DNA from: an uncultured Solirubrobacteraceae bacterium
Lineage (GTDB): Bacteria > Actinomycetota > Thermoleophilia > Solirubrobacterales > Solirubrobacteraceae
Reading direction: 5' to 3'
Length of the DNA stretch: 28,656 nucleotides
Assembly: GCA_964588985.1 (NCBI GenBank)
Contig: CAZPQW010000034.1
Coordinates: 1 to 28,656 of the forward strand
The notes below the pieces were generated by a model. It was not told the origin of the DNA. It did no database searches and worked only from the letters and a program-made list of their open reading frames with translations. This document shows, piece after piece, positions 2,047 through 16,882 of this stretch (within the stretch, counting starts at the first letter, position 1; each line of letters opens with the position of its first letter). The translations under genes and the position numbers were made by a program.

Positions 2047-2544
2047 ATGGACAGGCCGACAAGCGCGCCGGGCATATCGCTCGTGCCAGAGCCGATGGAG
2101 GAAGCAGAAGTGCAGGCGCAGCTCGACGACATCGACGTGGACGCCCCGCGCGTGGGCATCGTGATGGGCTCCAAGAGCGACATGGAGACGATGGAGAAGG
2201 CCGCGAAGGAGCTCGAAGAGCGCGGCATCCTGCACGAGATGCGCGTCATGTCCGCCCACCGCGAGCCGGACGTCGTCGCGGAATACGCAAAGAACGCGCG
2301 CATGCGCGGGCTGCGCGTGATCATCGCCGGCGCGGGCATCTCGGCGGCCCTCCCGGGCGCGGTTGCCGCGCACACAGACCTCCCTGTCATAGGCGTGCCG
2401 CTCTCGGGCCGCCTCACCGCCGCGGGCGGACTCGACGCGATCCTCTCGATCGTGCAGATGCCTCCCGGCGTGCCGGTGGCCTGTGTGGGCCTGGACAACC
2501 CGCGCAACGCGGCCATCCTCGCCGCGCAGATCCTCGGCGCATGA
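2047..2544 (+). CDS. purE: PurE (N5-CAIR mutase / AIR carboxylase family)
   Basis: VGIVMGSKSD, SAHR, LPVIGVP, GGLDAILSIVQMPPGVPVA motifs. Acidic N-terminal extension. TAACGT lies 7 nt before the ATG. Confidence 0.95.
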   Translation: MDRPTSAPGISLVPEPMEEAEVQAQLDDIDVDAPRVGIVMGSKSDMETMEKAAKELEERGILHEMRVMSAHREPDVVAEYAKNARMRGLRVIIAGAGISAALPGAVAAHTDLPVIGVPLSGRLTAAGGLDAILSIVQMPPGVPVACVGLDNPRNAAILAAQILGA

Positions 2545-3833
2545 TCTCCCGCTACAGCCGCCCCGACCTGGCGGCCCTGTGGACCGACCAGGCGCGGATG
2601 GAGGCCTGGCGGCGTGTGGAGGTGGCCGCCTGCGAGGAGCTGCCCTCGTTGCTCGGCGACGGCGGTCCCGGCGAGGCGGAGCTGGAGGCGATCCGCGCGG
2701 CGTGCTTCACCGTGGCGGAGGTGAACGAGCGCGAGCGTACGACCGACCACGACATGGCGGCGTTCGTGGACGTGCTCGCCGCCTCCGCGGGCGAGGCGGG
2801 GCGCTGGATCCACTTCGGGCTGACCTCCTCCGACGTGCTCGACACGGCGCTCGCGCTGCAGCTGCACGAGGCCGGACAGGTGATCGCAGCGGGAGCGCAT
2901 GAGCTGGTCAACGCCTTCGCCACGCGCGCGCGCGAGCACGCCGACACGCTGTGCGTGGGGCGCACCCATGGGGTCCACGCTGAGCCGACCACGTTCGGGA
3001 TCAAGCTCGCGGGCTTCGCCTTCGAGGCCCACCGCAACGCGATCCGCCTCGACCGCGCCTTCGAGCAGGTCGCCGTGGGCGCGCTGTCGGGCGCGGTCGG
3101 CACCTACGCCGCGACCGGCCCCGAGTTCGAGAAGCGCGTGCTCGATCGTCTGGGCCTCGCGCGCGAGGACGTCTCCACGCAGGTCGTGCCACGCGACCGC
3201 CATGCGGAGCTGCTGAGCGCGATCGCGCTCGCGGGAGCGGGGCTGGAGCGCTTCGCCACCGAGCTGCGCCACCTGCAGCGCACCGAGGTGCGCGAGGCGC
3301 AGGAGCCGTTCCGCTCCGGGCAGAAGGGCTCCTCGGCGATGCCGCATAAGCGCAACCCGATCAAGAGCGAGCAGATCTCGGGGCTCGCGCGCGTGCTGCG
3401 CGGCAACGCCCAGGCGGGCCTCGAGAACGTCGCGCTGTGGCACGAGCGCGACATCTCCCACTCCTCCGTCGAGCGCATCGTGCTGCCCGACTCCACGATC
3501 CTGCTCGACTACCTACTGCACCGCACGATCGCGCTCGTGCGGGACATGACGGTGGACGCCGAGCGGATGCGCGCGAACCTCGAGTTGACGCACGGCGCGC
3601 TGTTCTCCCAGCGCGTGCTGCTCGCGCTCGTCGAGGCGGGCTCCTCCCGCGACGACGCCTACCGCGTCACGCAGGAGCTCGCGCAGTACGCGTGGGATCA
3701 CGGGACGCCGCTGCGCGACCTGCTCGCCGAGGACGACCGCGCGAGCGCCCTCGACCTCGACGCGATCTTCGACTACTCGCACTACACGCGCCACGCCGAG
3801 GCGATCCTCGCGCGTCTCGACGAGATCGCCTGA
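2541..3833 (+). CDS. purB: Adenylosuccinate lyase
   Basis: [19 protein letters not shown], and the fumarate-lyase signature [15 protein letters not shown] overlap with purE. Confidence 0.97.
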
Positions 3834-3879
3834 CAGCATCCGGGCGGCGGGTCCGAGTCGGTTGCTAGCATCGCCCCAC

Positions 3880-4800
3880 GTGACCCCCCTGCTCGCCGAC
3901 CTGCCCCTCCTCGCCAGCGGGAAGGTGCGCGAGATGTACGAGCTGCCGGGCGCCGAGCGGCGCCTGCTGATGGTCGCGAGCGACCGCATCTCCACCTACG
4001 ACGCGGTCCACCCGACGCTGATCCCGGACAAGGGCAAGGTGCTCACGGGGCTGTCGGTGTTCTGGTTCGAGAAGACCGGCCACATCGTCGCCAACCACCT
4101 CGTCTCCGCCACCGACGGCGTGCCGGAGTCCGAGCGCGGTCGCGCGCTGGCGGTGAAAGCGCTCGCGATGCTGCCGGTGGAGTGCGTGGTGCGCGGCTAC
4201 ATCACGGGCTCCGGCTGGAAGGACTACCAGGCGACGGGCAGCGTGTCGGGGATCGAGCTGCCGCCGGGGCTGCGCGAGTCCGAGCAGCTGCCGCAGCCGA
4301 TCTTCACGCCCTCCACGAAGGCCGAGACGGGCCACGACGAGGCGATCGACTTCGATCGCGCGGCGGAGCTGGTGGGCGACCGCGAGCTGATGCAGCGTGT
4401 GGCTGATGTGTCGATCGAGCTGTACTCGTTCGCCGCGGAGCACGCGCGCGCCCACGGCGTGATCCTCGCGGACACCAAGTTCGAGTTCGGGATCGACGAG
4501 AGCGACCCGGCCCGGCCATTGGTGGTCGGCGACGAGGTGCTGACGCCGGACTCCTCGCGCTACTGGCCCGCGGACGGCTACGAGCCCGGCCGCGGACAGC
4601 CGAGCTTCGACAAGCAGTACGTGCGCGACTGGGCCTCGGCGAGCGGCTGGGACAAGAAGCCTCCCGCCCCCGCGATCCCCGACGACGTGGTCGCCGGCAC
4701 CCGCGCGCGCTACGTGGAGGCGTACGAGCGCATCACCGGCCAGCCGTTCCAGGCGTGGCTCGATCGCTCTGGCGCGAGCGCCGCCGGCGAGCCTGCGTGA
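3880..4800 (+). CDS. purC: SAICAR synthetase
   Basis: SGKVRE, SDRISTYD, ECVVRGY, ADTKFEFG, DEVLTPDSSR, SFDKQYVRD. Start placed at GTG 3880 because TGcTAGCAT (3863-3871) precedes it. The ORF track start is 3862. Confidence 0.96.
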   Translation: MTPLLADLPLLASGKVREMYELPGAERRLLMVASDRISTYDAVHPTLIPDKGKVLTGLSVFWFEKTGHIVANHLVSATDGVPESERGRALAVKALAMLPVECVVRGYITGSGWKDYQATGSVSGIELPPGLRESEQLPQPIFTPSTKAETGHDEAIDFDRAAELVGDRELMQRVADVSIELYSFAAEHARAHGVILADTKFEFGIDESDPARPLVVGDEVLTPDSSRYWPADGYEPGRGQPSFDKQYVRDWASASGWDKKPPAPAIPDDVVAGTRARYVEAYERITGQPFQAWLDRSGASAAGEPA

Positions 4801-5030
4801 GGGCGCGTGTCCTGATCCGCCCGAAGGAGGGCATCCTCGACCCGCAGGGCGTCGCCGTCGAGCGCGCGCTTCCCGCGCTCGGCTTCTGCGGGGTCGCCAA
4901 CGTCCACATCGGACGGCTGGTCGAGCTGGACGTGGAGGACCCGTCGCAGCTGGAGGCGATGTGCGAGAAGCTGCTCGCCAACCCGCTCGTCGAGGACTAC
5001 GAGATCCAGATGCTCGGCGGTGACCTGTGA
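4797..5030 (+). CDS. purS: FGAM synthetase subunit PurS
   Basis: The GTG start overlaps the purC stop (GTGA). Motifs PKEGILDPQG and MCEKLLANPLVEDY. Confidence 0.95.
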   Translation: MRARVLIRPKEGILDPQGVAVERALPALGFCGVANVHIGRLVELDVEDPSQLEAMCEKLLANPLVEDYEIQMLGGDL

Positions 5031-5031
5031 G

Positions 5032-5070
5032 TATGTGCAGGTGTATATGTGCATGTGCTAATGTAGGCGT
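5032..5070 (+). promoter_or_regulatory. Leaderless extended -10 promoter with tandem ATGTGC repeats (putative RHH autoregulatory operator) for vapBC
   Basis: TGcTAATGT at 5056-5064, 6 nt before ATG 5071. ATGTGC occurs three times (5033, 5047, 5053) in this short AT-richer spacer. Confidence 0.6.
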
Positions 5071-5355
5071 ATGTCTTCCTCTGCTTCCCTGACACGCAGA
5101 ACCCAACTGCTGCTCGATGACGAGTTGCATCGGCGTCTGCGCGAGACAGCTGCGCAAAGGGGAATCTCGATGGGGGCGCTGATCCGCGAGGCGATTGACG
5201 AGAAGCTCTCCAGCACCCAGGATGCTCGCGCTCAGGCGATTCAGGAGCTGCTCGACGCGGAGCCAATGCCCGTCCAGGATTGGCCGATCATGAAGCGGCA
5301 GATGATCGAAGACATGAACGCTGGCGGTATGAGCCTGCTCGACACGTACGAGTGA
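5071..5355 (+). CDS. Ribbon-helix-helix (CopG-like) antitoxin, VapB type
   Basis: RRTQLLLDDELHRRLRETAAQRGISMGALIREAIDE has the RHH pattern. It lies directly upstream of a PIN gene. Confidence 0.85.
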   Translation: MSSSASLTRRTQLLLDDELHRRLRETAAQRGISMGALIREAIDEKLSSTQDARAQAIQELLDAEPMPVQDWPIMKRQMIEDMNAGGMSLLDTYE

Positions 5356-5362
5356 CCTGCCA

Positions 5363-5797
5363 GTGCGCAGGTTCCTCTTCGACACCGGCGTCTTCATCTA
5401 CGCGCTTGGAGGCGATCACCCATACCGTGAGCCATGCAGGGCCATCCTGCGCGAGGTGCAGGAGAGGCGCCTCGCGGCCGAGGCCAGCGTCGAGTTGATT
5501 CACGAGCTCGCCTATGTCCGCATGCGCCAGGTGGGACGCCGCGCGGACGCCGCGCGCTCCGCTCACGCAGTCAGGCGTTCCTTTTCGTTGCACACGGTCG
5601 AGCCGAACGACATGGAGCGCGCACTGGACCTGTGGTCCGAACACGAGCGGCTCGACGTACGCGATGCGATCTTTGCGGCCCAGGCTCTCAATCGCGGTAT
5701 CGATGCGATTCTCAGCCCCGATACGGACTTCGATGGCATATCTGGGCTCGAGCGGATCGACCCGGGAGACGCTGAGGCCGTCGCGGCGCTGGCATGA
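5363..5797 (+). CDS. vapC: PIN-domain toxin, VapC family
   Basis: FLFDTGVFIY, SVELIHE, DVRDAIFAA and ILSPDTDFD supply the conserved acidic PIN residues. The stop overlaps the purQ ATG (ATGA). Confidence 0.9.
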   Translation: MRRFLFDTGVFIYALGGDHPYREPCRAILREVQERRLAAEASVELIHELAYVRMRQVGRRADAARSAHAVRRSFSLHTVEPNDMERALDLWSEHERLDVRDAIFAAQALNRGIDAILSPDTDFDGISGLERIDPGDAEAVAALA

Positions 5798-6471
5798 AGT
5801 TCGGCGTCCTCCAGTTTCCGGGTAGCTGCGACGAGGTCGACGCGCTGAACGCCGCGAGGCGGGTGGCCGACGCGGAGCTGATCTGGCACGGCGACCGCGA
5901 CCTGAAAGGCGCCGACGCGATCGTCGTCCCCGGCGGGTTCTCCTACGGCGACTACCTGCGCGCGGGTGCGATCGCGCGCTTCAGCCCCGCGATGGAGTCG
6001 GTGATCTCCTTCGCAAACGACGGCGGCCTCGTGCTGGGGATCTGCAACGGCTTCCAGGTTCTGTGCGAGGCGCACCTGCTGCCGGGGGCGCTGCTCGGCA
6101 ACGCGAACCTGCGCTTCACCTCGCGCCAGGTGCAGCTCGAGGTGATCAACAGCGGCGGCTCGTTCACGATGGGCTGCGCGCTCGGCGAGCGCCTGTCGAT
6201 CCCCGCCAAGCACGCGTGGGGGCGCTACCACGCCGACCCCGACACGCTCGCCGCGATGGACCGAGCGGGGCAGTTCGTGCTGCGCTACGCGCCCGGCGAG
6301 AACTTCAACGGCTCCGTCCACGACATCGCGGGCGTGTGCAACGAGCGCGGCAACGTGTTCGGCATGATGCCCCACCCCGAGCACGCGGTCGACGAGCTCA
6401 CGGGCGGCTCCGCGGACGGGCTGAAGATCTTCCAGTCGATGCGCCTCGCCGTCGAGGGCGCGCGTGTCTGA
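5794..6471 (+). CDS. purQ: FGAM synthetase glutaminase subunit PurQ
   Basis: [23 protein letters not shown] (catalytic Cys), GMMPHPE (His-Glu). Confidence 0.96.
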
Positions 6472-8692
6472 GGTCGAGCAGATGCCTGGCCTGCAGGACG
6501 CGCTCGCGCTCGGGCTGACCGCCGCGGAGTATGAGCTCGTGTGCGAGAAGCAGGGGGGGCAGGCGCCCAACCAGGTCGAGCTGGCGATGTACTCGTTGCT
6601 GTGGAGCGAGCACTGCGCCTACAAGCACTCCAAGAAGCTGCTCCGCAGCCTGCCGACGGAGGGCGCGGCCGTGGTGATGGGTCCGGGAGAGAACGCCGGC
6701 GCGGTTGACGTCGGCGGCGGTCTCGTGTGCGCGTTCAAGGTCGAGTCGCACAACCACCCCAGCGCGGTCGAGCCGTTCCAGGGCGCGGCCACGGGGGTCG
6801 GCGGCATCCTGCGCGACATCTTCGCCATCGGCGCGCGCCCGATCGCGGTGCTCGACTCGCTGCGCTTCGGGGAGCCGGGCACGGGAGGCGGCGATGGCTC
6901 CCGGGCGCGCTACCTGCTCGACGGCGCGGTGTCGGGGATCGGCCACTACGGCAACTCGATCGGCGTGCCGACCGTCGGCGGCGAGGTGTACTTCGAGGGC
7001 CCCTACGAGCAGAACTGCCTCGTAAACGCGATGGCGCTCGGCCTCGCGCCGCGCGAGCAGCTGATCCGCAGCGCCGCCGCCGGCCCCGGCAACGTGCTGA
7101 TCCTGTTCGGCGCCTCCACCGGGCGCGACGGCATCGGCGGCGCGTCGGTGCTCGCCTCCGCGGAGCTCGGCGAGGGCGACGCGGACAAGCGCCCCACGGT
7201 GCAGGTGGGCGACCCGTTCGAGGAGAAGAAGCTGCTCGAGTGCTCGCTCGAGCTGCTCGCACGCGGCCTGATCGTCTCGCTGCAGGACCTCGGCGCCGCC
7301 GGCCTCACCTCCTCCGCGTCGGAGATGGCCTCCAAGGGCGAGGTTGGGATCGACATCGACGTCGCCAGGGTCCCGCTGCGCGAGCCCGGCATGGAGCCGT
7401 TCGAGGTGATGGTCAGCGAGTCCCAGGAGCGGATGCTCTGTGTGGTCGAGCCCGCGAACGTGGACGCGGTGATGGCGCTGTGCGAGAAGTGGGAGGTCAA
7501 CGGCGCCGCGATCGGCGTCGTCACAGACTCCGGGCGGATGCGCGTGCTCGATGACGGCGAGCTCGTGGGGGACATGCCAGTGCGCGCGCTCGTTGACGAC
7601 TGCCCGCTCTACGACCTGCACCCGGTCAAGCCGAGTGAGCCGGTCTACCCCGCACCCGCGGCCACGCCCGGCGTGTCGCTCGACGCCTCGCCCCGCGAGA
7701 CGCTGCTCGCGCTGCTCTCCAGCCCGAACATCGCCTCGCGCCGCCCGCTCTTCGAGCAGTACGACTCGATCGTCCAGTCCCGTACCGTGCGCCGCCCCGA
7801 GCAGGCTGACGCGGCCGTGCTGCTGCTCCCCGACGGCAGCGCGCTGGGCGTGTCGATCGATTGCAACGGTCGGCGCGTAGCCGCCGACCCCTACCGCGGC
7901 ACGATCGAGGCGGTGCTCGAGTGCGCCGCGAACCTCGCGTGCGTCGGCGCTCAGCCGCTCGGCACCACCAACAACCTCAACTTCGGCAACCCCGAGAAGC
8001 CGCACATCGCGTGGCAGCTCACCGAAGCGGTCCGCGGCCTCGGCGAGGCGTGCCGCGCGCTCGACGCGCCGATCGTCGGCGGCAACGTGTCGCTCTACAA
8101 CGAGGGCGCCACCGGCCCCATCTACCCCACGCCTGTCATCGGCATGGTCGGCCGCCTCCCCGACGCGCGCCGCGCCGGGCGGCTGGGCTTCGCGAAGGAG
8201 GGCGACGCGATCGCGCTCGTCGGGCCGTTCAACCCCGCGCTGCCCGCGAGTGAGTTGGCGAAGCTGCTCGGCCACGCGCTCCCCGACGGCCTGCCCGAGA
8301 TCGACATCGACGCCGTGCGCGCCACCCACGCGGCCATCCGCGACGCCGTGCGCGCGGGCGACCTGTCGAGCGCCCACGACATCGCCGAGGGCGGCCTCGC
8401 GACCGCGCTCGCCGAGTGCTGCCTCGCGGGAGACGTCGGCGCTCTGGTCGACATCGCGGCGGTAGCCACGGACGCCACCGACGCGCTCTTCGGCGAGGGC
8501 CCGGGCGGGTTCGTCGTCAGCGGCCCCGCCGAGGCGCTGAGCGAGCTGGGCGCCCATGCGCCGGTGCTCGTGCTCGGCGCGGTGGGCGGCCGGGAGATGG
8601 AGATAAATCACTCGGGCGCGAATGTCAACCTCAGCGCAACGCTCGCCGAGCTTTCCGAGTCACACGGCGCGCTCGCCGATCTCTTCTCATGA
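6464..8692 (+). CDS. purL: FGAM synthetase subunit PurL (small type)
   Basis: [50 protein letters not shown]. 742 aa. Confidence 0.97.
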
Positions 8693-10371: not shown

Positions 10372-10475
10372 GGGCCTGTCCTGTGTTTCGATGATCGAGG
10401 GAACGTGCTTTCCCAGACATCGACGCCGCACGCGCCCCCGCTGACAGTAGTTTGGTGCACGCCGGCAGCGGACTA

Positions 10476-10491
10476 TGTGTGATGGGTCACA
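10476..10491. promoter_or_regulatory. CRP/FNR-like palindromic operator in the divergent small-ORF/purN spacer
   Basis: TGTGTgatgggTCACA is one mismatch from TGTGA-N6-TCACA. It also reads as a perfect TGTGA-N4-TCACA. Confidence 0.45.
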
Positions 10492-10508
10492 GCTATCGTG
10501 CGGATCGC

Positions 10509-11150
10509 GTGACCGACTCACTTCCCATCGCCGTGCTGGTATCAGGGACCGGCACCAACCTGGGGGCGCTGCTGGAGACGGTGCACGAGGCGCAGGCAGA
10601 GATCGTGGGGGTGGCTTCGAGCATCGCCGGAGTGCCGGCGCTCGAGCGGGCCGATGCGGCGGGCGTGCCCACGGCCGTGTTCCCCCGCGGCGAGTATCCC
10701 GACCGTGGTGCCCGCGACGATGCGCTCGCCGACTGGATCGAGGAGCGCGGCGCGCGGCTGGTGGTGCTCGCCGGCTACATGGAGCTGCTCGGCGCCCCGT
10801 TCCTCGACCGCTTCCCCGACGCGGTCATCAACGTCCACCCGTCGTTGCTGCCCGCGTTCACCGGCCTCAATGCGATCGAGCAGGCGCTCTCCTACGGGGT
10901 GAAGGTGTTCGGCGTGACCGTGCACTTCGTCGACGCGGGCGTCGACTCCGGCTGCGTGATCCTCCAGCGCGCCGTCGAGCTGCCCCACGCGCGCGACCCG
11001 CAGGAGGTGCTCGCCGCGCTGCGCCCGCTCGAGCACGCGCTGCTGCCGCAGGCCGTGCGGCTGATCGCCGCCGGTGCGCTGAGGGCCGACCCGGAGAACC
11101 CGCGCAGGCAGCTGATCGATCGCGCGGCGCTCGCCGCGGACGAAGGATAG
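10509..11150 (+). CDS. purN: Phosphoribosylglycinamide formyltransferase
   Basis: AVLVSGTGTNL, VLAGYM, INVHPSLLP, GVTVHFVDAGVDSG. Start placed at GTG 10509. Confidence 0.95.
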   Translation: MTDSLPIAVLVSGTGTNLGALLETVHEAQAEIVGVASSIAGVPALERADAAGVPTAVFPRGEYPDRGARDDALADWIEERGARLVVLAGYMELLGAPFLDRFPDAVINVHPSLLPAFTGLNAIEQALSYGVKVFGVTVHFVDAGVDSGCVILQRAVELPHARDPQEVLAALRPLEHALLPQAVRLIAAGALRADPENPRRQLIDRAALAADEG

Positions 11151-11161
11151 GCTCCGGGCAG

Positions 11162-12796
11162 ATGGCCTCAGACGGCGAGCACACCACCGATCGCGCAGCC
11201 GGGATCGAGCGTGCCGCGCCCGGCGAGGTGCGGCTGCGCAGGGCGCTGCTGTCGGTCTCCGACAAGCGCGGGATCGTCGACTTCGCCCGAGGCCTGGCCG
11301 ATCTGGGCGTGGAGATCGTCTCCACCGGCGGCACCTCGCGCGAGCTCGAGGGCGCCGGGATCGTGGTGCGCTCGATCGAGGACTTCACCGGCTTTCCCGA
11401 GATCATGGACGGGCGCGTCAAGACGCTGCACCCGCGCCTCTACGCGGGGCTGCTCGCGCGGCGCGACCAGGACGCCCACCTGAGCGCCGCCGAGGGGCAG
11501 GGGATCGAGCAGGTGGACCTCGTGTGCGTGAACCTCTACCCGTTCGAGGAGACCGTCGCGCGCGGCGACGCCAGCGACGAGGAGATCGTCGAGAACATCG
11601 ACATCGGCGGTCCCACCATGATCCGCGCCGCCGCCAAGAACGCGCCGTTCTCAGCCGTCGTCGTCGACCCCGAGGACTACGAGCAGGTGCTCGCCGAGCT
11701 GCGCTCCTCCGACGGCAGGCTGTCGCTAGGCACGCGTAAGGGGCTCGCCGCGAAGGCGTTCGCGTGCACCGCCCGCTACGACGCCGCCATCTCCACGTGG
11801 TTCGCCGCGCGCACGCACGAGGGCTTCCCGCCCACGTGGACCGACGCGTACGAGAAGGTCTCAGACCTGCGCTACGGCGAGAACCCGCACCAGCAGGCCG
11901 CCTACTACGCGCGCGTTGGCGCTCCCACCCACCTGCTCGCCGGCGTCGAGCAGCTGCACGGCAAGGAGCTGTCGTTCAACAACCTGCTCGACCTCTCCTC
12001 CGCACGCGAGCTCGTCGAAGGGCTCGACGGCGCCGCGTGCGCGATCGTCAAGCACAACAACCCCTGCGGCTGCGCCGTCGCCGCCACCGGCCAGGCCGCC
12101 TACGAACGCGCCTTCGCGTGCGACCCGCAGAGCGCCTACGGCGGCGTCATCGCCGTCAACCGTCCCGTCGACGGCGCGTTCGCCGCGGAGCTCGCCAAGC
12201 AGTTCATCGAGGTGCTGCTCGCGCCGAGCTACGACGCCGACGCGCTCGACGCGCTGCAGGTGAAGAAGAACGTGCGGCTGCTGCAGCTGAAGGACTGGCC
12301 CGAGCCGAGCACCGAGGTCGAAGGCAAGGGCGTGCTCGGCGGGATGCTCGTGCAGACGCGCGACGTCGTATCCGAGACGCGCGGGGAGATGCGCGTCGCG
12401 GGCACGCGCGAGCCGAGCGAGGCGCAGTGGCACGCGCTCGAGTTCGCCTGGCGCGTATGCCGCCACGTGCGCTCCAACGCGATCGTCATCGCCGCCGGCG
12501 ACGGAGCTTCCGCGAGCGCCACCATCGGCATCGGCGCTGGGCAGATGAGCAGGGTCGACGCCGTGCGCATCGCCATCGAGAAGGCGCACGCGTTCCAGCC
12601 CGACCTCCTCTCGGGCGCGGTGCTCGCCTCCGACGCGTTCTTCCCGTTCGCCGACGGCCCGCAGCTCGCGATCGACGCGGGCGTCACAGCGATCGTCCAG
12701 CCCGGTGGGTCGGTGCGCGACGAGGAAGTCCTCGCCGCTGCCGATGCCGCGGACGTCGCGATGGTCTTCACCGACCGCCGCCACTTCAGGCACTAG
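11162..12796 (+). CDS. purH: Bifunctional AICAR transformylase / IMP cyclohydrolase
   Basis: ALLSVSDK, DGRVKTLHP, IDIGGPTMIRAAAKN, LRYGENPHQ, KHNNPCG, ASDAFFPF, C-terminal RHFRH. ATG 11162 lies just after purN. Confidence 0.97.
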   Translation: MASDGEHTTDRAAGIERAAPGEVRLRRALLSVSDKRGIVDFARGLADLGVEIVSTGGTSRELEGAGIVVRSIEDFTGFPEIMDGRVKTLHPRLYAGLLARRDQDAHLSAAEGQGIEQVDLVCVNLYPFEETVARGDASDEEIVENIDIGGPTMIRAAAKNAPFSAVVVDPEDYEQVLAELRSSDGRLSLGTRKGLAAKAFACTARYDAAISTWFAARTHEGFPPTWTDAYEKVSDLRYGENPHQQAAYYARVGAPTHLLAGVEQLHGKELSFNNLLDLSSARELVEGLDGAACAIVKHNNPCGCAVAATGQAAYERAFACDPQSAYGGVIAVNRPVDGAFAAELAKQFIEVLLAPSYDADALDALQVKKNVRLLQLKDWPEPSTEVEGKGVLGGMLVQTRDVVSETRGEMRVAGTREPSEAQWHALEFAWRVCRHVRSNAIVIAAGDGASASATIGIGAGQMSRVDAVRIAIEKAHAFQPDLLSGAVLASDAFFPFADGPQLAIDAGVTAIVQPGGSVRDEEVLAAADAADVAMVFTDRRHFRH

Positions 12797-12845
12797 CCGG
12801 ACGCCCTCGCCTCGCCGCCGAAACCTGCCGTTCGAGCGGGGGGAC

Positions 12846-12874
12846 TTGAAGAATGTGTTTTAACGATATATCGT
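12846..12874 (+). promoter_or_regulatory. Sigma70-type promoter overlapped by a 12-bp perfect palindrome (probable PadR operator)
   Basis: TTGAAG (12846-12851), 17 nt, then TATCGT (12869-12874). Palindrome ACGATATATCGT at 12863-12874. A further half-site CACGATA lies near 12893. Confidence 0.7.
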
Positions 12875-12909
12875 GATGGTTCTTAGATAGCTCACGATAG
12901 GGAGTAGAT

Positions 12910-13545
12910 ATGTTTTCGCATCAAGTTCATTCGACAGGCGCAAAGCCCGGCTGCAGGTCGGGACGACACGGAGGAGGCGGCGAGCACAGCCGTCACTTCG
13001 CATACGGCCCGCGCGGCGAGTTCGGCGGGTTCGGCGGCCACCGCGGAGGACCGCGCGGTCGCGGACGCAAGGCGCGCCGTGGCGACATCCGCACGGCGGC
13101 GCTGCTGCTGCTCGCGGAGGAGCCGCGCAACGGCTACCAGATCATGCAGGAGGTCCAGGAGCGCAGCGGCGATGTCTGGAGCCCGAGCCCCGGCTCGGTC
13201 TACCCGGCGCTGGCTCAGCTCGAGGACGAGGGCCTGATCCGCTCCACCGAGCAGGACGGGCGCAAGCTGTTCGCGCTCACCGACGCCGGCCGCGAGGTCA
13301 TCGACGCGCGCGGCAAGGATCGCCCCGCCCCGTGGGAGGAGATGGGCGACGAGTACAGCAACGACGCGCACGCGCTCGGCAAGCTCATGCGCGAGGTCGC
13401 GTTCGCGTTCGCCCAGGTGATGCGCACCGGCAGCGAGAGCCAGATCAAGGCCGCCCGCGAGATCCTTGCGGGAACACGCCGCGACCTCTATCGGGTTCTC
13501 GCGGATGGCGACGAGGACGGCGGTACGGTAGACCAAGGTAAGTGA
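12910..13545 (+). CDS. PadR-family transcriptional regulator
   Basis: GDIRTAALLLLAEEPRNGYQIMQE...WSPSPGSVYPALAQLEDEGLI...RKLFALT winged helix. Gly/His/Arg-rich N-terminus. Confidence 0.92.
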   Translation: MFSHQVHSTGAKPGCRSGRHGGGGEHSRHFAYGPRGEFGGFGGHRGGPRGRGRKARRGDIRTAALLLLAEEPRNGYQIMQEVQERSGDVWSPSPGSVYPALAQLEDEGLIRSTEQDGRKLFALTDAGREVIDARGKDRPAPWEEMGDEYSNDAHALGKLMREVAFAFAQVMRTGSESQIKAAREILAGTRRDLYRVLADGDEDGGTVDQGK

Positions 13546-14546
13546 TCGAGCTGAGTTCTACGATGCCCCGCACCGCCCCGGCCGTCTCGGTCGACGGGCT
13601 CGTCAAGCGCTACGGCGAGCTCGAAGCGGTGCGGGGCATCGAGTTCGAGGTCCGCACCGGTGAGACGTTCGGCTTCCTCGGCCCCAACGGCGCGGGCAAG
13701 TCGACCACGATCAACATGCTCTGCACGCTCGCGCGCCCGAGCGCCGGCACCGCGCTCGTCGCCGGCCACGACGTGGTGAGCGAACGCGACGACGTCAGGC
13801 GCAACATCGGCCTCGTCTTCCAGGACACCACGCTCGACGGCTACCTCACCGCCGAGCAGAACCTGCGCCTGCACGCCGAGCTCTACGGCATGCCCCGCCA
13901 GACGATCCCCGAGCGCATCCGCCAGGTGATGGAGATGGTCGAACTGTGGGAGCGCCGCTCGCACCTCGTCAACACTTTCTCCGGCGGCATGAAGCGCCGC
14001 CTGGAGATCGCGCGTGGCCTCCTGCACTCGCCGCGCGTGCTGTTCCTCGACGAGCCCACCGTCGGCCTCGACCCGCAGACGCGCAGCTCGATCTGGGGCT
14101 ACATCACGCGCCTGAAGCGCGAAGAGGACATCACGATCTTCCTCACCACCCACTACATGGACGAGGCCGAGTACTGCGACCGCATCGCGATCATGGACCA
14201 GGGTCGGATCGTCGTGCTCGACACGCCCGAGGCGCTCAAGGAGAGCGTCGGCAAGGACCGCGTGCAGATCCACACCGCCGACGACCACGCGGCGATCGAC
14301 GCGCTGCGTGAGCGCTTCGGCATCGAGGCGCGGATCGCGGAAGGCGCGGTCACGTTCGGCGTGCCCGGCGGCGAGGAGTTCGTGCCGCGGCTGTTCTCCG
14401 AGCTCGGCCAGCAGATCCGCTCGGTGAGCGTCGCACGCCCCTCGCTCGACGACGTGTTCATGGCCTACACCGGCACCACCATCCGCGACGCCGAGGCCTC
14501 GAGCACCGATCAGATGCGCAACGTAGCGAGGATGCTGAGCCGCTGA
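13542..14546 (+). CDS. ABC-2 (DrrA-like) exporter ATP-binding protein
   Basis: Walker A GPNGAGKS, signature FSGGM, Walker B LFLDEPT, H-loop TTHYM. Confidence 0.93.
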   Translation: MIELSSTMPRTAPAVSVDGLVKRYGELEAVRGIEFEVRTGETFGFLGPNGAGKSTTINMLCTLARPSAGTALVAGHDVVSERDDVRRNIGLVFQDTTLDGYLTAEQNLRLHAELYGMPRQTIPERIRQVMEMVELWERRSHLVNTFSGGMKRRLEIARGLLHSPRVLFLDEPTVGLDPQTRSSIWGYITRLKREEDITIFLTTHYMDEAEYCDRIAIMDQGRIVVLDTPEALKESVGKDRVQIHTADDHAAIDALRERFGIEARIAEGAVTFGVPGGEEFVPRLFSELGQQIRSVSVARPSLDDVFMAYTGTTIRDAEASSTDQMRNVARMLSR

Positions 14547-15418
14547 TGGCGACGGTGGCGGCGAAACCGACGGAGACCGCGCGGGTGCGTGTGCCGGTCC
14601 GCAGCGCTCGCAGCGAGGCGCGCGCGATCAAGATCGTGTGGAAGCGCGAGCTGATCCGCTTCTGGCGCGACAAGCTGCGAATGGTCACCTCGCTCGTGCA
14701 GCCGTTCCTGTTCCTGTTCGTGCTCGGCACCGGCCTCTCCTCGATCGCCTCCGCGGGCACGCGCGGCGTGGACTTCAAAACCTTCGTGTACCCAGGCGTG
14801 CTGTGCATGGCGGTGATGTTCACCGCGATGTTCTCCGCCGCGTCGATGGTCTGGGATCGGGAGTTCGGCTTCCTGCGCGAGATGATGGTCGCGCCCGTGA
14901 GGCGCAGCTCGCTGGTGCTTGGCAAGTGCCTCGGCGGCACCACGGTCGCGGCGTTCCAGGGCGTGATCGTGCTCGCCCTCGCGGGACTCGTGCACGTCCC
15001 CTACTCGCCGATCCTGATCCTCGAGGTGTTCGGCCTGCAGCTGCTGCTCGCGTTCTCGATCACCGCGTTCGGGATGATGGCCGCGGCGCGCGTCAAGCAG
15101 ATGCAGTCGTTCATGGCGCTCACGCAGATGGCGATCATGCCGATGTACTTCATCTCCGGCGCGATGTTCCCCGTCTCGGGCCTGCCGCGGTGGCTCGCGA
15201 TCCTCAACCGCATCGACCCGCTCACCTACGCCGTCGACCCGATGCGCAGGGCCGTGTTCGCGCACCTGAAGATCGGCGCGGTCGCGCGGCGGGCGCTCGA
15301 TCCGGGTGTGACGTGGTGGGGATGGCACGTGCCCGGCCTGCTCGAGGCGGGCGTCGTCGCGGTGCTCGGCCTCGCGATGCTCGCCATTGCGATTGTTGAG
15401 TTCTCTCGCGTGGAGTGA
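14546..15418 (+). CDS. ABC-2 exporter permease (DrrB-like)
   Basis: Multiple TM segments, DREFGFLREMMVAPV, ISGAMFP, DPLTYAVD. Coupled to the ATPase gene. Confidence 0.92.
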   Translation: MATVAAKPTETARVRVPVRSARSEARAIKIVWKRELIRFWRDKLRMVTSLVQPFLFLFVLGTGLSSIASAGTRGVDFKTFVYPGVLCMAVMFTAMFSAASMVWDREFGFLREMMVAPVRRSSLVLGKCLGGTTVAAFQGVIVLALAGLVHVPYSPILILEVFGLQLLLAFSITAFGMMAAARVKQMQSFMALTQMAIMPMYFISGAMFPVSGLPRWLAILNRIDPLTYAVDPMRRAVFAHLKIGAVARRALDPGVTWWGWHVPGLLEAGVVAVLGLAMLAIAIVEFSRVE

Positions 15419-15463
15419 AAGAAATTGCGCACGGCGCTCGGCGGCGGTGGTATGTTCGCGGCA

Positions 15464-16882
15464 GTGGCTGCGCTCGGTCCTGACACCCCCGCGCTGGAGC
15501 TCGCAGCGGCGCTGCGCGAGCGCAAGCTCTCCGCGGTCGAGCTGCTCGAGTCGTGCCTCGCGGCGGTCGATGCGCTGAACCCGCAGATCAACGCCGTCAT
15601 CTGGCGTAACGACGACGACGCGCGCGCCGCGGCCGCGGACGCCGACCGCCGCCTCGCGGCCGGCGAGAGCGCGCCGTTCCTCGGCGTGCCGCTGCCGATC
15701 AAGGACCTCACGCCGGTCGCCGGCTGGCCCGTCACGTACGGATCGCACGGTGCCCCCGAGGGCGCGAGCGAGGAGAGCGAGCTGGTCGTCGACGCGCTCG
15801 CGCGCGCGGGCTTCGTGCTGTGCGGGCGCACCAACACCCCCGAGTTCGGTGTCATCACCGTCGCGGAGAACAGCCGCTACGGCGTCACCCGCAACCCCTG
15901 GGATCTCGACCGTTCGCCGGGCGGCTCCAGCGGCGGCGCGGCCGCGGCGGTGGCGGCGGGCATGTTCCCGATCGCCCACGCCAACGACGGCGGCGGCTCG
16001 ATCCGCATCCCCGCCTCCTACTGCGGCCTCGTCGGCCTCAAGCCGAGCCGCGGGCGCGTGCCGCGGCTCGCGCAGAGCTGGCTCGGCGCGGTCGTCGAGG
16101 GCGTCGTGGCGCGCACCGTGGCCGACTCCGCGGCGGTGCTCGACTCGATCTCCTACTTCGACCCGTGCGCCTGGTACAACGCGCCCGCTCCCGCGCGCGC
16201 GTTCTCCCAGGAGGTGGGCGCCTCGCTGGGCTCGCTGCGGATCGGCCTGATGGCGCAGGCGCCGCTCGGCATCCCCACCGACGAGGCGTGCGTCGCGGCT
16301 GCGCGCGCGGCGGCGGCGATGCTCGAAGAGCTCGGCCACACGGTCGAGGAGGTCGAGGTGCCGACGATCTCCGAAGAGATGGTGCCGCCGTTCATCGCCC
16401 TCACCCAGGGCGGCCTGGCGGACTACGAGGGCGTCGACTGGACTGCGGTGGAGCCGCACATCGCCCACCAGCGCGGACTCAGCGGCGAGACCGGCGCATA
16501 CGACTACGTGCTCGCGGCGCGCACTCTCGAGCTGCTCAGCCGCCGCGAGGTGGCGCGCTGGGGCAGGGACTTCGACGTGCTGCTCACACCCACCTCCGCG
16601 ATCCTCCCGCCCGCGGCCGGCTCGGTGATGGCGGCCCAGCACGCGGCCCCCGACCAGCCGCTGTTCGACGTCGTAGCGAGCGTGTCGTTCACCGCGTTCG
16701 GCAACGTCACCGGCCTGCCGGCCGTGAGCCTGCCGCTTCACAGCACCGACGAGGGCGTGCCGGTCGGCGTGCAGCTCGTCGCCGGTCCGTGGCAGGAGGG
16801 AAGCCTGATCGCCCTCTCGTCGCAGCTGGAAAAGGCGCGGCCGTGGGCCGAGCGCCGGCCGCAGCCTGCGGTAAACCCCTGA
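15464..16882 (+). CDS. Amidase-signature family enzyme
   Basis: [17 protein letters not shown] and [11 protein letters not shown] (Lys-Ser-Ser triad). Start placed at GTG 15464 after TGgTATGTT (15448-15456). Alternative starts are 15425 and 15452. Confidence 0.92.

Follow-up and report, generated by a model that had tools for sequence, protein, structure and literature searches.

A VapBC-type toxin–antitoxin pair between purS and purQ in Solirubrobacteraceae and its turnover among close relatives

We describe here a toxin–antitoxin (TA) gene pair of the VapBC type that lies inside the purine-biosynthesis cluster of an uncultured soil bacterium of the Solirubrobacteraceae (assembly GCA_964588985.1; genome G000 below). 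The window, i.e., the whole stretch of 28,656 nucleotides that was analysed (contig CAZPQW010000034.1, positions 1 to 28,656), carries on its forward strand purB, purC, purS, a 40-nt spacer, vapB, vapC, purQ, purL, and purF, in this order (Table 1). The spacer and the two TA genes form a cassette of about 765 bp, which stands between two subunit genes of one enzyme, the formylglycinamidine ribonucleotide (FGAM) synthetase. The same junction was compared in related genomes, as a sequence-only reading of the window had proposed, and filled, empty, eroded, and different-allele states were all found.

The pur cluster is a chain of overlapping frames. The purL start (GTG 6464) overlaps the purQ stop (6469-6471) over 8 nt, purL and purF overlap as ATGA, and purS probably starts at GTG 4797, overlapping the purC stop as GTGA. 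vapC belongs to the same chain, its stop codon (TGA 5795-5797) being formed within the purQ start ATGAAG (ATG 5794-5796). The chain is interrupted only at the 40 nt before vapB; the insertion preserved it on the downstream side only. The insert also differs in composition: the GC content at third codon positions (GC3) is 0.75 in vapB and 0.79 in vapC, versus 0.93-0.96 in purB, purC, purS, purQ, purL, and purF, and the overall GC content drops from about 0.71 to 0.58-0.63 over it. No terminal direct or inverted repeats were found at the cassette borders (5021-5031, 5794-5797) and, among the open reading frames (ORFs) of at least 40 aa between purS and purQ, only vapB and vapC match a protein family, which leaves no space for a transposase. 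With neither transposase, integrase, nor terminal repeats, the cassette does not qualify as a transposon, an insertion sequence, or an integron. The end of purS (5020-5032) and the vapB/vapC junction (5352-5364) resemble each other over 13 nt, which was dismissed as a chance two-copy match. In all of this, the sequence-only reading was borne out: it had placed an intact ribbon-helix-helix (RHH) antitoxin/PIN toxin pair exactly between purS and purQ, on which Pfam and the coordinates agree, and it had reported the vapC/purQ and purQ/purL overlaps, the richer use of A/T-ending codons, and the lack of transposase and terminal repeats.

Table 1. Features of the purine cluster and of the TA cassette (window coordinates)
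Feature	Position	Strand	Evidence or remark
purB	2541-3833	+	Pfam assignment confirmed
purC (SAICAR synthetase)	3862..4800	+	Pfam PF01259, E 5.6e-71
purS	4797..5030	+	Pfam PF02700, E 1.8e-23; stop TGA 5028-5030
Putative cassette promoter/operator region	5031..5070	+	40 nt between the purS stop and the vapB ATG
vapB, antitoxin, 94 aa	5071..5355	+	Pfam PF22513 (FitA-like RHH) and PF01402 (RHH_1)
vapC, toxin, 144 aa, predicted PIN-domain ribonuclease, GTG start	5363..5797	+	Pfam PF01850
ATGA overlap vapC/purQ	5794..5797	+	purQ start codon provides the vapC stop; predicted translational coupling point
purQ, FGAM synthetase glutaminase subunit	5794..6471	+	Pfam PF13507 (GATase_5), E 2.3e-33
purL, FGAM synthetase large subunit	6464..8692	+	Pfam AIRS, AIRS_C, FGAR-AT linker
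purF	from 8689	+	ATG overlaps the purL stop as ATGA, 8689-8692

The two proteins have the features of a VapBC module. The vapB product, which has an N-terminal RHH domain and a C-terminal tail that presumably binds the toxin, matches the FitA-like RHH family (1.9e-07) and RHH_1 (1.7e-06), both over the cut-offs, and gives weak PDB sequence matches to the CopG-type antitoxin 7by2_A and to VapB26. The vapC product matches the PIN family with 54.1 bits against a cut-off of 23.6 (E 3e-14). Five acidic residues (D7, E40, D98, D101, and D120) are invariant in an alignment of 33 orthologues, and the PIN ORF is intact, at 143-146 aa, in 33/33 of the orthologues first extracted. The AlphaFold model of VapC (predicted local distance difference test score 92.1) superposes on solved VapC toxins from Klebsiella, Shigella, Rickettsia, and Mycobacterium tuberculosis with Foldseek template modelling scores of 0.66-0.79. 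By sequence, a single query of the PDB gave one insignificant and unrelated match (E 0.84), and a profile of 33 sequences gave none. Against the NCBIfam model TIGR00028 (the Mtu_PIN_fam VapC subfamily), the protein reached 23.4 bits (E 5.5e-05), under the curated cut-off of 73.6; it is a PIN/VapC-like toxin outside that subfamily. Thus, a PIN domain with its metal-holding acidic residues is preceded, directly upstream and at a distance of 7 nt from stop to start, by an antitoxin gene with a DNA-binding domain, here an RHH.

The likeness to VapBC systems with RHH/CopG antitoxins, such as those of Klebsiella pneumoniae (7BY2/7BY3) and M. tuberculosis (VapBC26, 5X3T), and to further systems of the same kind (Shigella VapBC, 3TND; Rickettsia felis VapBC2 on promoter DNA, 3ZVK), lies in the PIN fold, the conserved acidic residues, the RHH antitoxin gene placed first, the tight bicistron, and the repeats overlapping the putative promoter. 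On the other hand, the cassette toxin is only 12-22% identical to the solved VapCs, and it has no stop codon of its own, ending in the start codon of a housekeeping gene. Median pairwise dN/dS (the ratio of nonsynonymous to synonymous substitution rates) is 0.167 for vapB and 0.174 for vapC, next to 0.153 for purS and 0.208 for purQ, and both TA genes are under purifying selection. The pair looks like an active type II module of the VapBC type with an RHH antitoxin, divergent but otherwise of the usual kind; protein databases hold 508 related clusters at E ≤ 1e-10, some of them named 'VapC family toxin' by NCBI. The 3.4-Mb genome G000 contains 17 PIN-family matches over the cut-off, so this organism carries many VapC-like genes. 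We also noticed a perfect 11-nt tandem duplication, GGACGCCGCGC, present in two copies at 5534-5555, within the most variable loop region of vapC.

The distribution of the cassette was established from a census, i.e., an even draw of 401 species genomes of one Solirubrobacteraceae genus, G000 included (G stands for species genomes, L for loci, and X for metagenome runs). This denominator counts three unpublished genomes (G166, G405, and G057) that enter the tallies only, no locus having been read in them. PIN matches at E ≤ 1e-35 occur in 79/401 species and, in 75 of these (G000 included), the identity is 64-99%; the orthologue was not found in the other 326 species of the census. Of the 75 species above the 64% limit, 72 carry the cassette at purS|purQ. 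These 72 placements comprise 29 of the 30 best loci, G002, G009, and G022, 14 species placed via PIN/purQ coordinates, and 26 of 28 fetched regions. The three exceptions are of two kinds. G232 (L052, 1179-1935) has the whole cassette, with a promoter of the same sequence, at the purF/purN-purH junction, where it likewise terminates in ATGA; this makes a second pur-operon junction for one cassette lineage. The copies in G049 (L113) and G083 (L117), about 69% identical, are not associated with pur genes: an rsmI-like gene stands on one side, and another PIN-like ORF with metG on the other. Both copies end in a stop codon of their own, and 9 nt separate the −10 box from the start. Paralogues of 46-50% identity are located elsewhere in six further loci, with L126 next to metG.

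A scan of the GTDB species collection (185,579 genomes, two peptide patterns) returned 77 loci, 76 at purS|purQ and one at the G232 site, nearly all in Solirubrobacterales-type metagenome-assembled genomes (MAGs). The 10 junctions read from outside the genus, at order level, are empty without exception, and a plasmid collection gave only 5 weak haloarchaeal PIN matches. One locus, L208, was at one time taken for a second cargo of 50% identity at this junction and was rejected as such, being the same cassette in a frameshift-rich MAG. In another (L069, G198), vapB homology continues in frame with vapC without a stop between them, representing either a fusion or an assembly indel.

Within the genus, the junction changes state often. 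A flank tree was built from purC, purS, purQ, and purL with 108 rows, i.e., 63 filled junctions, 35 unfilled genus junctions (34 empty and one remnant), and 10 outgroup rows. On this tree, at least 20 changes between the filled and unfilled states are needed, 13 of them forced by well-supported branches. The clade of G000 itself (99% in the Shimodaira–Hasegawa-like approximate likelihood-ratio test) contains the filled G414, the empty G372, and the remnant G289, and G372 is empty although its purQ is 97% identical to that of G000. A soil contig about 93% identical to G000 shows a clean empty junction, in which the sequence from 5020 to 5795 is skipped and 18 other bases lie between, and in the metagenome run X24 (probably DNA) only the empty allele of a relative is covered. 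The empty junctions of the genus are tight, with the GTG start of purQ either 5-8 nt after the purS stop or in a 4-nt overlap with it.

The remnant in G289 (L072, oriented 1240-1501) keeps the promoter, a 56-aa ORF for the C-terminal half of VapB without the RHH, the ATGA, and, from the end of vapC, some 13 codons that include the unusual ...AALA end of G000. What is left reads as toxin-first erosion, the toxin being destroyed and the DNA-binding half of the antitoxin lost. The 56-aa ORF, still behind the old promoter, may be an orphan toxin-binding peptide, for which an anti-addiction role is conceivable, or a mere stage of decay. At the empty junctions with larger gaps (116 nt in L089; 18-43 nt in L023, L019, L020, L075, and L017), neither an ATGTGC motif nor a vapC tail was found, and, given this lack of a scar, only G289 was counted as a remnant. 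In five of them (L017, L019, L020, L075, and L089), purS ends in ...EIIVE, the spacer measures 18-116 nt, and purQ mostly starts with ATG (GTG in L019).

The history of the cassette is also separate from that of its flanks. Compared with G000, G414 is 98% identical in an unlinked rpoB segment and 98% in purQ, and only 70% in the PIN protein. For G233, the values are 92% (rpoB), 77% (purQ), and 84-85% (PIN). Along the G000/G414 alignment, nucleotide identity is 0.87-0.97 in most 60-nt flank windows and 0.53-0.80 inside the cassette, and the change falls at the cassette borders. In a tree of the RHH and PIN proteins, 15 members drawn from different flank clades group together with strong support. 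In approximately unbiased (AU) tests, three flank clades were rejected on the TA data (p < 1e-30), and two TA clades were rejected on the flank data (p = 2e-7 and 0.008).

We then consider how the cassette would be expressed. Upstream of vapB, an extended −10 box, TGCTAATGT (5056-5064), is followed by six bases and by the vapB ATG; its hexamer thus lies at −12 to −7, and transcription would start on the A of this ATG to give a leaderless mRNA. The −10 search used the TANNNT rule taken from M. tuberculosis, an E. coli-type sigma-70 scan being unsuited to an actinobacterium of 70% GC; such a promoter scan of 3700-6700, combined with a terminator scan, found nothing, which says little for a genome of this kind. 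TANNNT occurs only three times on the + strand of 3700-6700, once as the cassette box and once in TGCTAGCAT before purC. The pattern TGnTAnnnT-N6-[AG]TG, in frame with vapB, is kept in 59/63 purS|purQ loci; over all loci, it is found in 60/66, the G232 copy adding one and the two metG-side copies none.

Three ATGTGC copies (5033, 5047, and 5053, + strand) fall within 26 nt, and the 5031-5070 region contains the direct repeat TATGTGCA with a 14-nt spacing. Since the whole window has 12 ATGTGC copies for 10.85 expected by chance, the signal is the clustering and not the count. Across 62 aligned upstream regions, ATGTGCA/TGCACAT repeats are conserved and overlap the −10 box and the start, with about two ATGYRC and two GYRCAT repeats (i.e., two per orientation) in each. 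By analogy with VapBC systems, these repeats are the obvious candidate operators for the RHH protein, and the conserved geometry together with the repeats suggests a leaderless, autorepressed promoter. The leaderless promoter with ATGTGC repeats announced by the sequence-only reading thus holds as a prediction, from the box geometry in 59/63 loci and the clustered repeats.

This arrangement has a parallel in M. tuberculosis. In the transcription-start study of Cortes et al. (2013, PMC3898074), TANNNT is given 7-12 bp upstream of 73% of the primary transcription start sites, the strongest promoters are TGNTANNNT, and 32/37 TA pairs are leaderless. The likeness lies in a TANNNT/TGNTANNNT −10 box that sets the transcription start at the start codon; the starts of M. 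tuberculosis were mapped experimentally, whereas that of the cassette is predicted from geometry alone. A second extended −10 box, TGCTAGCAT (3863-3871), comes after the purB stop (3831-3833) and 8 nt before the in-frame GTG 3880. From this spacing, GTG 3880 rather than TTG 3862 is the probable purC start, with hardly any leader on its message, and purS and the cassette are likely read from this box as their upstream promoter.

Could purQ and purL be expressed independently of the cassette? No terminator-like site was found in 3700-6700, and no conserved TANNNT was found inside vapC among the 63 orthologues, the best positions being shared by 7 and 11 of 63. This agrees with the earlier observation that the overlaps leave no gap for a separate purQL promoter; about one quarter of mycobacterial starts lack TANNNT, and a purQL promoter without this motif may therefore exist. 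The 4-nt [AG]TGA overlap of vapC and purQ is present in 62/63 loci and, with overlapping codons and no terminator-like site, a TA-purQL read-through transcript is likely. Given the tight empty junctions described above, purQ was ancestrally read with purS. As the layout predicts it, a purQL message in the filled state must cross the cassette, whether it originates at the cassette's own promoter, further upstream by read-through, or at both. The sequence-only reading went further and suggested that TA autoregulation may govern purQL expression. The anatomy, with its overlap and its lack of a terminator or conserved internal promoter, fits this claim, but the tie is not exclusive, read-through from the likely purC promoter being unhindered; regulatory coupling of purQL to TA autoregulation is plausible. 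Further down the strand, beyond purF (10452-16882), the window holds a probable purN, purH (AICARFT/IMPCHase), a PadR regulator, an ABC-2 transporter pair, and an amidase.

A TA pair directly upstream of housekeeping or regulatory genes is also found in Staphylococcus aureus, where, according to a review (PMC3920265), mazEF is co-transcribed with the downstream sigB operon and the TA promoter contributes by read-through. In our case, co-transcription is predicted. The two cases differ in that the S. aureus pair is MazEF and not VapBC, is not autoregulated, and is followed by a weak terminator before sigB. Moreover, mazEF sits ahead of its operon without codon overlap, whereas the cassette sits between two subunit genes of one enzyme.

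Our preferred reading, which as a whole we hold to be probably right, is that an intact VapBC-type cassette entered the junction a single time and without help from a mobile element, that it shares a transcript and a translational coupling with purQL, and that it behaves as a passenger which is lost, eroded, or swapped by homologous recombination through the pur flanks. An ancestor belonging to one Solirubrobacteraceae genus-level group would have received the insertion, with the purS stop and the purQ start as its exact limits, a single event being simplest since all copies share the same junctions. In the proposed mechanism, the −10 box would start the leaderless mRNA, VapB or a VapB-VapC complex would bind the ATGTGCA/TGCACAT repeats and repress the promoter, and the cassette would be transcribed together with purQ-purL and also read through from the purC-purS promoter, as suggested by the gene overlaps and by the lack of a detectable terminator or internal promoter. 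Translation of purQ would be coupled to termination of vapC at the ATGA, where the overlap itself is observed. Such a position would guarantee transcription of the cassette and make imprecise deletion costly, because purQL expression would break, and toxin addiction would penalise loss further. Afterwards, the cassette would have been a semi-autonomous, dispensable passenger, inherited, cleanly lost, eroded toxin-first, or replaced by other alleles, most likely by homologous recombination via the highly conserved purS/purQ flanks.

Several points weigh against this reading. The leaderless start, the read-through, the co-transcription, and the translational coupling are all drawn from sequence. 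A benefit to the host would account just as well for the strong purifying selection seen across many species. The higher dS of the cassette (0.87-1.07, versus 0.57-0.66 in the flanks) may reflect a weaker codon bias and not a separate history. The flank tree is based on about 850 columns of linked genes that possibly recombine themselves. The clades submitted to the AU tests were chosen with the trees already in view, and the p-values therefore overstate the conflict; the G414 and G233 contrasts are independent of this choice of clades. About 270 further purQ-positive, PIN-negative genomes lie outside the junction comparison and may hold other cargo. Finally, a good many of the genomes used are MAGs, and these contain indel errors (e.g., in purQ of L073 and in all genes of L208).

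The first alternative is a domesticated purine-stress switch, in which the cassette would be a regulated internal promoter or translational gate for PurQ and PurL, or in which purine starvation would shift the toxin:antitoxin ratio toward growth arrest. It can call on the purifying selection, on the lack of a terminator and of a conserved internal promoter between vapB and purL, on the coupling point kept in 62/63 loci, on the G232 copy, which again ends in ATGA at another pur junction (purF|purN), and on the G289 remnant, which retains the promoter and the coupling end. Nevertheless, the cassette was not found in 326 of the 401 genus species and is absent from G372 and from 10/10 order-level junctions read, the changes of state number at least 20, alleles are exchanged independently of the genome background, and two copies with a stop codon of their own are found away from the pur genes. 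We consequently judge the switch improbable. The sequence-only reading had left the choice between such a switch and a selfish module that takes shelter in a core operon. The latter fits the presence in 75/401 species, the at least 20 changes, and the tree conflict, whereas domestication is not supported, no evidence pointing to it.

In its most far-reaching form, which we regard as unlikely, the cassette would be a working gate on FGAM synthetase. PurQ and PurL would be made only from messages running through vapBC, with PurQ initiation needing ribosomes that finish vapC, and the output of purQL would be governed by the autoregulated TA promoter and by the balance of toxin and antitoxin. In the other direction, pur operon induction would supply a non-leaderless vapBC message, shift the ratio, and link purine starvation to growth arrest. 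This form also includes TA mobility without a mobile element, through core-gene homology arms. Taken by itself, the mobility of a TA pair via near-invariant core genes is a less speculative novelty than the purine gate.

A role mainly in anti-phage defence by abortive infection, with the place in the pur operon being incidental, is compatible with the passenger reading; as an explanation of its own, it also appears improbable. Patchy distribution and allelic turnover are typical of defence genes, and G000 has its 17 PIN-domain matches, but PADLOC returned 0 families matching either protein, no defence gene or mobile element is in the neighbourhood, and an incidental placement leaves the one exact junction in 72/75 copies unexplained.

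Pure vertical descent from the genus ancestor, with many losses and no exchange, would attribute the tree conflict to rate variation and short alignments. The shared junctions, the one clear erosion intermediate, and the occurrence of filled junctions in all major subclades, down to the row that branches off first (L048), would all be expected. The contrast between G414 and G000, with its drop exactly at the cassette borders, does not fit, the AU tests reject congruence both ways, and the empty genus junctions resemble those of the outgroup and are scarless except for G289. This reading is therefore quite improbable.

An assembly or binning artefact joining the TA pair to the pur genes, which the sequence-only reading had named as a possible refutation and for which one could invoke the 48-contig assembly, the near-identical DNA in rhizosphere metagenome runs, and the GC contrast of the insert, is refuted and has practically no chance of being right, since an X6 contig spans 4700-5958 with 0 differences, X7 and X8 contigs bridge each junction (these runs are not marked as possible sources and come from one year and habitat, perhaps one sampling campaign), and the arrangement recurs in 72 species, including single-contig chromosomes.

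The passenger reading finds a parallel in the chromosomal TA pairs of Photorhabdus which, according to Belot et al. 2026 (PMC13617665), are patchy, repeatedly acquired at one site, and lost by deletion or by toxin-first pseudogenisation, a turnover that the authors interpret as selfish behaviour. The purS|purQ cassette shares the patchy distribution, the repeated acquisition at one site, the loss by deletion, and the toxin-first erosion. In that account, the Photorhabdus pairs occupy high-turnover spots with transposases and integrases, whereas the cassette occupies a highly conserved neighbourhood without mobile-element genes and, unlike them, appears to move through the homology of its core flanks.

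Our literature searches retrieved no paper linking vapBC with purQ and, judged by title and the start of the abstract, none apparently relevant among those listed on toxin-antitoxin with purS and purL. As far as these searches show, three features are unusual: the location between genes for two subunits of a single enzyme, with a link by overlapping codons; the absence of any mobile-element gene; and, in a neighbourhood of maximal conservation, close relatives that between them show the whole range of states (filled, empty, eroded, and swapped).

Chromosomal TA pairs usually lie in variable regions beside mobile elements, and whether they are selfish or useful has long been debated. Here, the cassette occupies about the most conserved neighbourhood of the genome and yet goes through a full selfish life cycle among close relatives. 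It thus offers a natural experiment on whether embedding in a core operon protects a TA pair from loss, whether conserved flanks can be the vehicle of its spread, and whether a TA promoter imposes regulation on downstream host genes. It is also a warning for the prediction of function from operons, in that membership in the pur operon does not by itself make a gene a pur gene.

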